Of a stretch of DNA of 64,000 nucleotides, positions 39,727 through 48,342 are shown in pieces. This DNA is from an archaeon GW2011_AR15 (GTDB lineage Archaea; Nanobdellota; Nanobdellia; Woesearchaeales; GW2011-AR15). The position numbers and the translations under genes are program-made. A model generated the notes under the pieces. The model was given only the letters and a program-made list of their open reading frames with translations. It did not search any database and was not told the origin of the DNA. Location of the stretch: positions 896,001 through 960,000 of the forward strand of contig CP010425.1 of NCBI GenBank assembly GCA_000830295.1. Direction: 5' to 3'. Position 1 is the first letter of the stretch, and each line of letters opens with the position of its first letter.

Positions 39727-40749
39727 ATGATTCCGGATTCAGAGATTAAAGAGCTGAGGGAAGCGCTTGTAAATTCTACCCGGCCGCTGGTTTTCTTTGA
39801 TGATGACCCTGACGGCCTGTGCTCTTTCCTCCAGTTCTACAAGCTGAACCCTGAATGCCACGGAGTTGTCTTCAAGAAGGCAGGCTCGCTTGATGCGGAA
39901 TTCCTGAGGAAAGTCGGGGAATATCACCCCGATGCAATATTCATACTTGATATTGCGAATGTTGACCAGGAGTTTCTGGATAAGGTGAAAAACGCATACT
40001 GGCTTGATCACCATTCACCTTCTGAAAGGAAGAATGTGAAATATTACAATCCTATGATAAAAAGTAAGGGAAAGGACAACAAGCCCATAAGCTACTGGGC
40101 GTATAAGATTACAGGGGAGAGCTCATGGCTGGCAATGACAGGCTGCGTGGGAGACTGGTTCCTTCCTCCGGATATAAGGAAAAAATTTGATGAGGAATAT
40201 CCCGGGCTTATTGACAAGAAGATAAAAAAGCCGGAAGATGCCCTGTTCAAAAGCAAAATAGGAACACTCTCAAGGGCGCTTTCATTCATCCTGAAAGGCA
40301 AGACAAAAGAGGTAATGGATTGCGTTAAAGTGCTTACGCGAATCCAGCACCCAAATGATATACTGGAGCAGAGCACTTCCAGAGGTAAGTTTATCTGGAA
40401 AAAATACCTGAAGACCAACAGCATATACAATTTACTGATAAAATCAGTCAAAGTTACTAAGGATAAGATAATCCTGTTTAAATATTCCAGTGATAAAACC
40501 TCATTAACGTCTGAGATGAGCAATGAGCTTCTTTTCAGATATCCGAAAAAGTTTATAATAATTGCAAGGGAAAAGAACGGAGAGATGAAATGCTCACTCA
40601 GGTCATCAAAATACAAGGTCCGCATTATCCTTAAGAAAGCTCTTCAGGGAATTGACGGGTATGGCGGCGGGCACCTGCATGCATGCGGAGCTGCGGTAAA
40701 GGCAACTGATTTTGACAGGTTTCTGGAGAATATAAGGCAGCAATTATAA
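39727..40749 (+). CDS. DHH family phosphoesterase
   Basis: DDDPDG, LD, DHH, SLRS, GGGHLHACG. Confidence 0.88.
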   Translation: MIPDSEIKELREALVNSTRPLVFFDDDPDGLCSFLQFYKLNPECHGVVFKKAGSLDAEFLRKVGEYHPDAIFILDIANVDQEFLDKVKNAYWLDHHSPSERKNVKYYNPMIKSKGKDNKPISYWAYKITGESSWLAMTGCVGDWFLPPDIRKKFDEEYPGLIDKKIKKPEDALFKSKIGTLSRALSFILKGKTKEVMDCVKVLTRIQHPNDILEQSTSRGKFIWKKYLKTNSIYNLLIKSVKVTKDKIILFKYSSDKTSLTSEMSNELLFRYPKKFIIIAREKNGEMKCSLRSSKYKVRIILKKALQGIDGYGGGHLHACGAAVKATDFDRFLENIRQQL

Positions 40750-40784
40750 TAAATTTTATATATAGACCCGACCTACTTCTCCCC

Positions 40785-40826
40785 ATGTTTTCAGATAATA
40801 TCGTAGTTTCTATCATTATTATCTAG
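40785..40826 (+). CDS. putative Ile-rich leader peptide MFSDNIVVSIIII
   Basis: ATG 22 nt after TTTATATA (40755-40762); four consecutive Ile codons before TAG; directly upstream of ileS. Confidence 0.6.
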   Translation: MFSDNIVVSIIII

Positions 40827-40867
40827 TTGGGGCTCTGAAAGGGCTCTGGTAATTAATATGATAGAGA
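40807..40867 (+). promoter_or_regulatory. putative attenuator hairpin overlapping the Ile codons
   Basis: TTTCTATCAT (40807-16) pairs with ATGATAGAGA (40858-67); inner GGGGCTCT-GAA-AGGGCTCT (40829-47); G-U pairs favour plus-strand RNA. Confidence 0.5.
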
Positions 40868-40910
40868 GCAAATTATTTAAAACAGAACAAAAATACAGAT
40901 AAGCACGAAG

Positions 40911-43900
40911 ATGGAAAAATACGACCCTGTAACTGAAGAGAAGAAAATTCTTGAATTCTGGGAAAAAGAAAAGATAAGGGAAAAAGCTGTTTCAAAGAAC
41001 AAAGGGAAGAAACCCTTCTATTTTCTTGACGGCCCGCCATATACCTCCGGCAAGATCCATCTTGGAACTGCATGGAACAAGTCTATCAAAGACATGGTCA
41101 CCAGATACAAAAGGATGAGGGGATTTGATGTCTGGGACAGGGCAGGCTATGATATGCACGGCCTTCCTACAGAGGGTAAAGTGCAGGCCAAGCTCGATAT
41201 GAAGACAAAGGAAGAGATCCTCAAATATGGACTTGCAAAGTTCATAAAAGACTGCAGAGAATGGGCTGTTACCAACCTGAAGCAGATGAACAAGGACTTC
41301 AAAAGGCTTGGGGTCTGGCTTGATTTTGACAATGCTTACCAGACAATAGACAATGACTATATTGAGGGAACATGGTGGCTTGTAAAAAAAGCCCATGAAA
41401 AAAACAGGCTGTATGAAGGCCAGATGACAATGACCTGGTGCGGCAGCTGCCAGACAGCCCTTGCAAAGCATGAGCTTGAATACAAGAATGTTGTTGACAA
41501 ATCCCTTTATGTGAAATTCAAGGTAAAGGGCAGAAAAGACGAGTATCTGATTATATGGACAACAACGCCCTGGACAATCCCCTACAACCTGGGAGTCATG
41601 GTCAATCCTGACCTCGTTTATGTAAAAGCAAAAGTGGGCAACGAGACATGGGTCCTTGCAAAAGAGCTTGTGAAAATCATTGAGGAAAAAGCAGGAAAAA
41701 AGTACAGGATAGCTGAGGAATTCAAGGGAAAGGAGCTTGTGGGCACGGAATACATACATCCGATGGAAGATGTCCTGAAGCACCATTTTGATGCATTGAG
41801 GAAGAAAGCAAAAAAGCTTCATGTTGTTGTGCCAAGCACTGAGTATGTCATAACAGATTACGGAACAGGTCTGGTGCACATGGCTCCCGGATGCGGAGGC
41901 GAGGACTATGAAGTCGGCCACAGGGAAGGCCTCCCTCCTTTCAACCAGGTCAATGAAGAAGGATATTATGATAATACAATGGGTCCGTTCTCAGGGTTGC
42001 ATGTAAAGAAAAATAACCTTGTTTTTGTAGAAGACTTAGAGAAAAGAGGCGCAGTTGCAGCCATGGAGGATTATCCACATGATTACGCCCACTGCTGGCG
42101 CTGTAAAAACCCGATATTATACAGGACAACAAGCCAGTGGTTCTTCAGGGTTGAGGACCTTATCCCAAAGATGAGGAAGCTGAATAAGGAGAAGATGTAT
42201 TGGGTGCCTGACTGGGCAGGAAACAGGCAGTTTGACTCATGGCTGGAGAATTTAAGGGATAACGGAATTACAAGGCAGAGATTCTGGGGCTCTCCTCTTC
42301 CTGTCTGGAAATGCGATTCATGTAGCCACTATGTTGTTGCTGAATCCAGGAAAGAGCTGAAAAAACTAGGAGCATCCCATATCCCGGATGACCTTCACAA
42401 GCCCTGGATCGATGAAGTAACACTGCCCTGCGGGAAGTGCAGGGGAACAATGCACAGAAATCCCGATATAATGGATGTCTGGATAGATGCAGGAGTTGAT
42501 TCATGGGCATCACTTGGATATCCGCATGATGACAAGCTATTCAAGAAATTATTCCCTGCTGATTTCATAACAGAAGGGAAAGACCAGATAAGGGGGTGGT
42601 TCAACCTGCTGTTTGTGGCAAGCATGCTGGCGATGGAAGATATATCCTTTAAGGCGTGCTACATGACCGGCTTTGTCAATGATGCAATGGGCAGGAAGAT
42701 GTCAAAGAGCCTTGGCAATGTCATAAGCCCTGATGAGATTACAGAAAAATACGGCGCAGACACTTTCAGGTATTATTCAATAGGCGCAACTGCCCCAGGC
42801 CTGGACCTTAACTATAATTTTGAGGATGTTGAGCTCAAGAGAAGAAACCTGAGCATTTTGTGGAACCTGCACAATTTTGTAATTGACCTGGCAAAAACAA
42901 ATGGCCTCAATCCTGAAAAACTAAAAAGCACAGTTCTGAAAAGCGCAGGTGATGAAGAGCGATATATTTTGTCAAAACTGAATTCAGCAATCGCGCTTGT
43001 GACAGAGAAGCTTGACAACTACAATCTGAATGAAATTCCAATGATTACAGAAGAGCTTTACATGGAGCTGTCAAGGACATACATCCAGCTTGTGAGGGAA
43101 AAGGCAAACGCAGGAACTGATGAGGAGAAGGAAGTAGTGCTTTATACAGTTTACAGTGTGATGAAAAGCCTGCTCATACTGATGGCGCCCGTAACCCCTA
43201 TGATTACTGAAATGATGTACCTCAATATGAAAAAAGAATTTGGCCTGAAAAAAGAGTCCATCCACCTTTATGACTGGCCTGAAGCAGACAGGAAGCTTAT
43301 AGACAAAACCCTTGAAAAAGATATGGAGAATATAAAAGGAGTCATACAGGCAGTGCTGGGTGCAAGAGAGAGAGCGCAAGTGGGCACAAGATGGCCATTG
43401 CAGGAAGTCATAATCGAGACCTCAGATTCAGATGTAAAAAAGGCGGTTGAGGACCTCAAAGGGCTTATATTCTATCAGGCTAATGTAAAATCAGTGAAGC
43501 TTGTCAAGAAATTCGACAAAGCTGACATAACCATAAAGCCTAATTTCAAGACACTCGGCCCAGAATTCGGGAAAGATTCAAAGGAGATAATCAAATACCT
43601 TTCAGAGACGGACAATTCAGCCCTTGTGAGCCAGCTCAAAGACGGCAGGCTGAAAGCAGGAAAGCATGTTCTTGAAGAAAAGCACCTTGTGCTTGAGAAA
43701 ACACTTCCAAAAGGGTATTTTACAGGAGAATTTCCTTTAGGCAATGTCTTCCTGACAGCAGATGTTCCTGACGAGCTTGTTTCAGAGGGGTATTTCAGGG
43801 AAGTGCTGAGAAGGATACAGTCTTTCAGGAAAGATGCAGGCCTGAAGAAAACAGATGACATTGAGCTCTACCTAAAGCTGGACAAAGAGATTTACAGCAG

Positions 43901-48195: not shown

Positions 48196-48267
48196 AACTG
48201 AGAAATCAGTTGACACTTTGTGAGTTTCCTTTCAGTCAAGCTCACATAGAACTCTTTTATAAAAAAG

Positions 48268-48342
48268 TAGCGGGGAAAGGATTTGAACCTCCGACCTACG
48301 GGTTATGAGCCCGTCGGGCACTCCTGGCTGCCCTACCCCGCT
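48268..48342 (-). tRNA. tRNA-Met(CAT), initiator
   Basis: AGCGGGGTAGGGCAGCCAGGAGTGCCCGACGGGCTCATAACCCGTAGGTCGGAGGTTCAAATCCTTTCCCCGCTA; A1-U72, three G-C pairs in the anticodon stem, no encoded CCA. Confidence 0.95.

Follow-up and report, generated by a model that had tools for sequence, protein, structure and literature searches.

Does a ribosome translating a short leader set the expression of an aminoacyl-tRNA synthetase (aaRS) gene in an archaeon? The question is raised by a 64,000-nucleotide (nt) stretch of the genome of the archaeon GW2011_AR15 (contig CP010425.1, positions 896,001 to 960,000 of the forward strand; the whole stretch is called the window hereafter). There, ileS, the gene for isoleucyl-tRNA synthetase (IleRS), is preceded by a TATA box, a short open reading frame (ORF) that ends in a run of isoleucine codons, and a hairpin whose 5′ arm takes in part of that run. 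A preliminary description, made from the letters of the window, had set out this arrangement and proposed that it works as an attenuator; its TATA box, leaderless 13-codon ORF, hairpin of about 60 nt and ileS start all proved accurate to the base. Based on comparison with related genomes, we consider it probable that the module controls ileS in cis through a ribosome that senses Ile-tRNA, as an archaeal equivalent of the bacterial leader-peptide attenuators.

To determine how widely the module occurs, we fetched the ileS loci of 60 relatives of the host and refined a covariance model over three rounds. The first-round model, made from a single sequence, was too specific and returned four true matches. 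The third-round model matched exactly once in each of 11 genomes of the host's family, which numbers 20 genomes here, and also had matches in 10 of the 151 genomes of an order-wide sample (the host's own included), eight of which belonged to other families. All these matches were located directly upstream of ileS and each carried a leader ORF. Weaker copies were recognised by an ORF scan in two further family genomes (G010 and G018) and in G039, which brings the total to 22 instances spread over at least ten families, 13 of them in the 20 genomes of the host's family. Homologues of the two genes flanking ileS in the window were found at none of the other 21 loci (flanks of about 0.2–1.5 kb each), and the module therefore belongs to ileS. 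A short ORF with an Ile run (6–30 codons, at least three Ile among the last six) was located upstream of ileS at 12 of 30 loci, compared with 24 of 1211 upstream windows in the host's own genome. Mainly on the evidence of this conservation, the feature is far more than chance. The preliminary description had staked its proposal on conservation of the Ile run in relatives, and the run is kept across the 22 instances.

Searches over a broader range added no further copies. The sole additional match of the third-round model in a phylum-wide sample (G176) was a false positive, as it sat within an open frame of 666 codons, away from any ileS. A two-arm pattern scan matched at least 119 stretches, of which 80, mostly chance bacterial matches, were rescored with the third-round model; only two of these 80 exceeded 50 bits and, by score and coordinates, these were apparently the known copies in G003 and G020, making the scan uninformative on the wider spread of the module. 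The order and phylum searches were samples under strict filters and say nothing on absence in other lineages. In two genomes, G162 and G020 (loci L057 and L020), the module was positioned 260–300 nt before ileS, and in G162 a second TATA box was followed 25 nt on by another short ORF of 14 codons.

The leader ORF carried a coding signature in every instance. The frame of a conserved TCT serine codon reached back to an ATG 21–24 nt past a TATA-like octamer in 22/22, and the other two frames held an ATG in 4/22 and 3/22. Leader ORFs ranged from 11 to 21 codons with variable N-terminal parts. The Ser codon before the Ile run was TCT throughout (22/22), and Ile occupied the four following positions in 19, 22, 20 and 15 of the 22 instances, respectively. 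ATC, ATT and ATA were all used in these runs, i.e. the changes were synonymous. The stop codon was likewise interchangeable (TAG 11, TAA 7, TGA 4) and occurred 0–2 codons past the Ile run and 2–8 codons past the Ser codon (four in 17/22). A non-coding element would need no kept frame, start or interchangeable stop, and the leader ORF therefore looks translated. Its promoter geometry is also that of a leaderless message. Among 946 ATG-started gene calls of the host genome, obtained by crude ORF calling, the distance from the end of a TATA octamer to the ATG peaked at 22–24 nt (144/946; 82 at 22, 35 at 23 and 27 at 24 nt). The 22-nt spacing of the window's leader is thus the modal leaderless geometry of its genome, and the ORF is read as leaderless-type. 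Few of the host genes with the 22–24 nt spacing have a Shine-Dalgarno-like motif, and the genome seems to rely chiefly on leaderless messages.

Conservation was also apparent at the level of RNA structure. The window hairpin (61 nt in total, 40807–40867) consists of an outer helix enclosing an inner hairpin. Folding of 40800–40875 gave −22 kcal/mol (z = −3.18), with one of 200 shuffles as stable, and paired the outer arms much as the G-U-rich hairpin with Ile codons in its 5′ arm had originally been drawn. In an alignment of 19 sequences guided by the covariance model, a procedure in which fitting to the model favours structure, 85.1% of cells formed pairs, compared with 39–48% after sliding the partners by 1–3 columns. 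The covariation score was 0.362 compared with 0.05–0.12 for slid partners, none of 500 shuffles matched the observed pairing or covariation, and a nine-sequence set gave the same picture. In the inner hairpin, which in relatives is G+C-rich and conserved in neither stem nor loop sequence, both-side changes occurred at 10/10 pairs (as at a position that is G-C in nine sequences and C-G in eight). The stem covariation that the preliminary description had suggested looking for is thus plain in this part of the structure. The outer helix was 93.5% paired, largely by conserved sequence, with matched changes in both arms in G010 and G006, and it was present in 17/20 unconstrained single-sequence folds, which were read by eye and are independent of the model alignment. 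A middle helix of four pairs was unsupported (66.7% paired in the 19-sequence alignment). With MAFFT and RNAalifold combined, neither the ileS nor the valS leaders (see below) yielded a consensus structure, because these alignments are not structure-aware. Three features that characterise attenuators are hence found in the sequence: a short 5′ ORF kept in frame, tandem codons cognate to the downstream gene (Ile for ileS, Val for valS), and an overlap of the sensory Ser and first Ile codons with a helix, here the outer one.

Given the suggestion in the preliminary description that other aaRS genes be scanned for cognate upstream ORFs, we searched the intergenic DNA of the host genome for a TATA box followed at 18–27 nt by the ATG of a short ORF. 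There were 38 candidates, 17 of which had a spacing of 22–23 nt, and five of those carried a run of at least three identical amino acids near the C-terminus. One was located 139 nt before valS (NF009687, 1034 bits). This leader, MYSIWKTLSVVVAN, starts 23 nt past a TATA octamer and has Val-Val-Val near its end. Val-run leaders at the same spacing were found at 11 of the 19 family valS loci that could be examined, with a further broken copy in G009, so that a second synthetase gene carries a leader cognate to its own amino acid. In the valS leaders, a first helix encloses the Val codons, with apparent compensatory changes by eye; downstream come a complementary helix of 12 bp, which is conserved, and a U run. 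The 12-bp helix was 84.9% paired with no covariation beyond sequence conservation, and shuffles reached the observed values.

Two further candidates concern aromatic amino acids, each a single-genome observation. A Tyr-run ORF, MHKPAAQSKYSYYYYC, 23 nt past its TATA octamer, precedes a gene for a Phe 4-hydroxylase-like protein (Biopterin_H, E = 6e-41). A Tyr run in the leader would make sense for regulation, Tyr being the product of this enzyme; only the host's own genome was found to have the gene (1/61 searched). A Phe-run ORF, MAYTESVSGFFFFN, also 23 nt past a TATA octamer, precedes a three-gene cluster. The first two genes are without a family match, the first (192 aa) being present in the host's own genome only (1/20 family genomes), and the last encodes a pterin-4a-carbinolamine dehydratase, which recycles the cofactor of Phe hydroxylase. 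Pro-run and Asn-run leaderless short ORFs were rejected as cognate leaders, as they had no evident link to the downstream gene. The Pro-run ORF, MQTGLNPILPPPVM, is leaderless-type and lies 67 nt before an Lrp/AsnC-like gene, whose match to the Lrp/AsnC ligand-binding domain is weak (E = 7e-05, below the Pfam cut-off). Coordinates are presented in Table 1.

Table 1 Features of the ileS leader locus in the window, and run-containing leaders and other loci elsewhere in the host genome (BRE, B recognition element)
Feature	Position	Strand	Basis or remark
TATA octamer of leader promoter P1, TTTATATA	40755-40762	+	Sequence; BRE-like A/T-rich stretch directly 5′
Leaderless-type leader ORF, 13 codons + TAG, peptide MFSDNIVVSIIII	40785-40826	+	ATG 22 nt past octamer; codons ATG TTT TCA GAT AAT ATC GTA GTT TCT ATC ATT ATT ATC TAG
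Ser codon of leader ORF	40809-40811	+
Ile codons of leader ORF	40812-40823	+
Outer helix, 5′ arm, UUUCUAUCAU	40807-40816	+	End of codon 8, Ser codon and Ile codons 1-2 of the run; folding pairs it with 40858-40867
Inner hairpin, 10 pairs (5 G-U in window copy), loop GAA	40827-40849	+	Begins 1 nt past leader stop
Outer helix, 3′ arm, AUGAUAGAGA	40858-40867	+	Folding, alignment
P2 candidate, TATA-like A/T run AAATTATTTAAAA	40870-40882	+	Adjoins hairpin (GC between); ends 28 nt before ileS ATG
ileS, isoleucine--tRNA ligase, 1045 aa	40911-44048	+	TIGR00392, 812 bits (cut-off 621)
RecJ-like DHH-family gene upstream of leader promoter	39727-40749	+	Weak RecJ model matches
valS leader	L032:309-353 (G000:C1:672608-672652)
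valS	L032:448-2844
Tyr-run ORF	L034:354-404 (G000:C1:241553-241603)		Downstream gene starts at L034:485
Phe-run ORF	L033:305-349 (G000:C1:165204-165248)
Three-gene cluster after Phe-run ORF	L081:372-950, 961-1425, 1481-1810
Pro-run ORF	L208:200-244 (G000:C1:1079699-1079743)
16S and 23S rRNA genes	L202:1-2967 (G000:C1:1041834-1044800)	-	Neighbours on one strand

How might such a leader act? In the reading we favour, P1 would be a strong promoter starting the transcript at or next to the leader ATG, and the leader ORF would be translated as a leaderless message. With ample charged tRNA-Ile, the ribosome would pass Ser-Ile-Ile-Ile-Ile and leave at the stop codon, allowing the Ser and Ile codons to pair with the 3′ arm and the long hairpin to close around the inner hairpin, which would form in either state. 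With charged tRNA-Ile scarce, the ribosome would dwell on the Ile codons, so that the outer helix would stay open and its 3′ arm unpaired. A ribosome on Ser-Ile-Ile covers the 5′ arm, so that the outer helix and a slow ribosome should be mutually exclusive. The balance of open and closed states would then set the share of P1 polymerases or transcripts that yield IleRS, the open state favouring expression. The sensor part of this scheme is well supported by the anatomy; that the ORF is translated, that ribosomes stall on it, in which direction expression shifts and by which output step are points that we infer. The direction originally put forward, in which stalling would prevent the hairpin and raise IleRS, would be a logical one. 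What stands of the attenuation proposal is therefore its sensor half, a translated-type cognate ORF with its Ile codons in a hairpin arm and in cis to ileS, as borne out by frame, start and ending in 22/22, covariation, linkage to ileS and the valS counterpart. The classical outputs of an attenuator did not hold up, as described below.

Archaeal intrinsic termination depends on oligo-U. No U tract follows the ileS hairpin, as the preliminary description had remarked; in the window there is GC and then the A/T run AAATTATTTAAAA instead. Nor were mutually exclusive terminator and antiterminator helices found, there being one conserved nested hairpin and, in the alignments and folds, no conserved alternative partner for either arm. 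Predicted accessibility of the ileS start (−16 to +4) was unchanged when the Ile codons were blocked (mean unpaired probability 0.59 free, 0.58 blocked; 20 genomes), so simple sequestration of the ribosome-binding site does not explain the output. With other outputs unsupported, a kinetic, co-transcriptional effect is favoured. The hairpin would close while the polymerase is on the A/T stretch or at an occupied second promoter (P2), and the closed hairpin would bring about pausing, termination or release, or processing or cleavage, possibly via aCPSF1/FttA, a homologue of which is encoded in the host genome (866 bits, cut-off 580). A stalled ribosome would block closure and let more polymerases reach ileS, with P2 supplying basal ileS expression in most genomes.

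The candidate second promoter deserves closer attention, since the preliminary description had itself cautioned that TTTAAA at 40876 could be an independent ileS promoter. That caution was well placed. Using the criterion of an A/T-only run of at least 7 nt starting within 17 nt of the 3′ arm, an equivalent run was found in 19/22 instances, at promoter-like spacing to ileS: 22–28 nt from run to ATG where ileS has no Shine-Dalgarno motif and roughly 28–37 nt where it has one. Genomes with no Shine-Dalgarno motif before ileS were the host's own (28 nt from run end to ATG), G133 (22 nt), G096 (23 nt), G129 (25 nt) and G155 (17 nt, from a longer run). A GGTG-type motif was present in G006, G007, G005, G002, G012, G010, G004 and G003 (about 28–37 nt), and in G016 and G009 at longer spacing. 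By reading, family members that have no leader module carry a similarly spaced TATA box ahead of ileS. The A/T run is therefore most likely the ordinary ileS promoter, with the module set directly upstream of it, and in most genomes, the window's included, ileS is probably served by a promoter of its own. Three instances, in three genera, have no P2-like run (G018, G001, which belongs to the window's genus, and G061). In these, a Shine-Dalgarno motif and the ileS ATG follow 20–26 nt past the 3′ arm, and ileS must, judging from this layout, be co-transcribed with the leader.

Several of these observations weigh against the reading we favour. Among them are the high occurrence of P2-like runs, the missing U tract, the missing alternative partner and the unchanged accessibility of the ileS start. 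In the window, no Shine-Dalgarno-like motif lies between the P2 candidate and the ileS ATG, so P1 read-through would have an unaided internal start, which weakens the read-through step. A co-transcriptional read-through output hence fits the three genomes with no P2 and fits the window genome less well. Covariation in the outer helix, the part that would do the sensing, was found at 2/9 pairs only, and constraint on its 3′ arm could reflect a BRE of P2. Finally, the module was missing from 7/20 family genomes (six of these were also checked by eye, and G017 by model only), and is therefore dispensable.

The chief rival explanation is promoter interference, which we consider unlikely. Here ileS would be expressed from P2 only, with P1 read-through occluding P2. 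Stalling on the Ile codons would uncouple transcription from translation, and aCPSF1/FttA would then stop the P1 polymerase ahead of P2, freeing P2 and raising IleRS; under Ile-replete conditions the closed hairpin would shield the untranslated RNA from aCPSF1/FttA. Sensing would work as in the favoured reading, with the output inverted. The P2-like run adjoining the hairpin in most instances is consistent with this scheme, as are the spacings in the host, G133, G096 and G129, which are leaderless-like and match the genome-wide 22–24 nt peak, the poor translation that long transcripts may have in the window, and the presence of an FttA homologue. However, promoter interference fails in G018, G001 and G061, where it would lower IleRS on starvation. 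In addition, its occlusion and factor-loading steps are hypothetical, and polarity through FttA enters it as general knowledge from the literature.

Translational attenuation in the manner of ermC or the mycobacterial poly-Cys leaders, in which a stalled ribosome opens a structure hiding the ileS ribosome-binding site, is improbable. As set out in the available part of a preprint, the mycobacterial 'Cys ribulon' comprises leaderless sensory short ORFs with poly-Cys tracts, on which a stalled ribosome keeps the ribosome-binding site downstream from being sequestered in a structure (bioRxiv 10.1101/834739). A leaderless short ORF with a cognate tract is the same architecture, to judge from that account, and a GGTG-type Shine-Dalgarno motif precedes ileS in most relatives. 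However, besides the accessibility result given above, the 3′ arm is located 20–80 nt upstream of the ileS start and is not the Shine-Dalgarno motif, and such a motif is missing at ileS from the window genome and from four or more others.

We give still less credence to an element that has no ribosome sensor, such as a protein- or tRNA-binding RNA (T-box-like, or synthetase autoregulation) or a DNA operator of P2, the ORF being incidental. Both outer arms are indeed conserved more tightly than Ile coding needs, as illustrated by the invariant TCT, and the 3′ arm adjoins the P2-like TATA run, i.e. it occupies the position of a BRE. However, frame, start geometry and stop are kept in 22/22 although upstream codons and stop identity vary, the inner hairpins differ in stem and loop, which speaks against a conserved anticodon-like or operator motif, and the valS counterpart uses Val codons. 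No Rfam family, the T-box included, was found at the locus, nor was a tRNA-like gene. A search of Rfam release 15 over 40000–41500 (E ≤ 10) gave seven weak, unrelated matches, none overlapping 40750–40910, and the sole tRNA in the tRNA scan was tRNA-Met at 48267–48342. A chance ORF and hairpin, of the kind that AT-rich intergenic DNA yields in numbers, or termination of transcripts from the RecJ-like gene upstream can practically be dismissed, in view of conservation always with ileS and with no shared flanking genes, and of the position of the hairpin downstream of a promoter and not directly past that gene.

How does the favoured regulator compare with known systems? Leader-peptide attenuation is a textbook consequence of bacterial transcription-translation coupling, and cognate-codon leaders are known from ilvGMEDA, ilvBN, pheM before pheST, trpL and hisL. 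The ileS leader resembles these in the tandem codons of its short ORF, which match the amino acid that the downstream gene handles, in making those codons part of an RNA helix and in targeting an aaRS gene, as pheM does with pheST, and the valS counterpart shares with them its helix followed by a U run. It is unlike them in its archaeal host, in its leaderless start from a TATA/BRE promoter in place of a Shine-Dalgarno motif, in its single conserved hairpin with neither terminator/antiterminator pair nor U tract at ileS, and in the second core promoter adjoining the hairpin in most genomes. T-boxes usually control ileS in Gram-positive bacteria and sense tRNA directly, with no ribosome. They share the gene and the signal (tRNA-Ile charging) with the present element, which has no Rfam T-box match and neither specifier loop nor antiterminator bulge. 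The ileS leader may also be likened to tnaC-type, Rho-dependent attenuation and to archaeal polarity through aCPSF1/FttA. The position of the ribosome on the leader could gate the access of a termination factor to nascent RNA, and the factor gene is present; no factor-loading site was identified at this locus, and for the output step this parallel serves as a hypothesis. Compared with the mycobacterial poly-Cys leaders, as far as the available part of that account goes, the likeness extends to a leaderless short first-cistron ORF with a cognate tract (here by geometry only) and to several loci per genome (here ileS and valS, together with the single-genome Phe hydroxylase and pterin-dehydratase candidates), whereas predicted folding gives no sequestration here and the host belongs to another domain of life. 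Since terminator/antiterminator pairing, a U tract and ribosome-binding-site sequestration all failed, the ileS leader is a member of neither the classical nor the mycobacterial class, and on its sequence features we file it as a separate variant of ribosome-mediated attenuation.

No archaeal leader-peptide attenuator, nor one for an aaRS gene in archaea, was found in the full-text literature searched, which did not extend to subscription journals or supplementary files, so that a prior report is possible. In the available part of PMC10450193, the word 'attenuator' occurs only in the reference list. In a more far-reaching reading, which we regard as possible though on balance doubtful, small-genome (DPANN-like) archaea would run a 'ribulon' of leaderless sensory mini-ORFs with cognate runs, comprising the ileS and valS leaders and, in the host genome, those of the Phe hydroxylase (Tyr run) and the pterin-dehydratase operon (Phe run) as well. 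The ileS output, a ribosome-gated hairpin acting on a polymerase that crosses an abutting second core promoter, would then be without bacterial precedent, amino-acid sensing being passed on as promoter occlusion or its relief, or as factor-dependent termination through aCPSF1/FttA, in place of a hairpin-plus-U terminator. The element offers a testable system for archaeal communication between ribosome and RNA polymerase, and its hairpin, lacking a U tract and adjoining a second core promoter, may expose an archaea-specific mechanism of termination or interference. It also bears on leaderless messages as sensors and on the control of tRNA charging in host-dependent archaea, which are thought to import amino acids.

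The host genome is a single 1.158 Mb contig of about 42% G+C, in which archaeal small- and large-subunit rRNA models top their clans; genome sizes across the host's order range from 0.6 to 2.7 Mb. Between the stop of the RecJ-like gene and the TATA octamer of P1 lie 5 nt. The C-terminal RecJ matches of this gene are weak (E = 1e-12, far under the cut-offs), and a GGGH motif typical of DHHA1 domains was seen by eye. The 3′ end of the 16S rRNA is GGAUCACCUCCU, so that GGAGGUGAUC-type Shine-Dalgarno motifs are to be expected. Part of this tail looks like the AUCAU of the Ile codons, and part of a Shine-Dalgarno motif looks like the UGAU core of the 3′ arm, a likeness that the sequence of the Ile codons may itself bring about.

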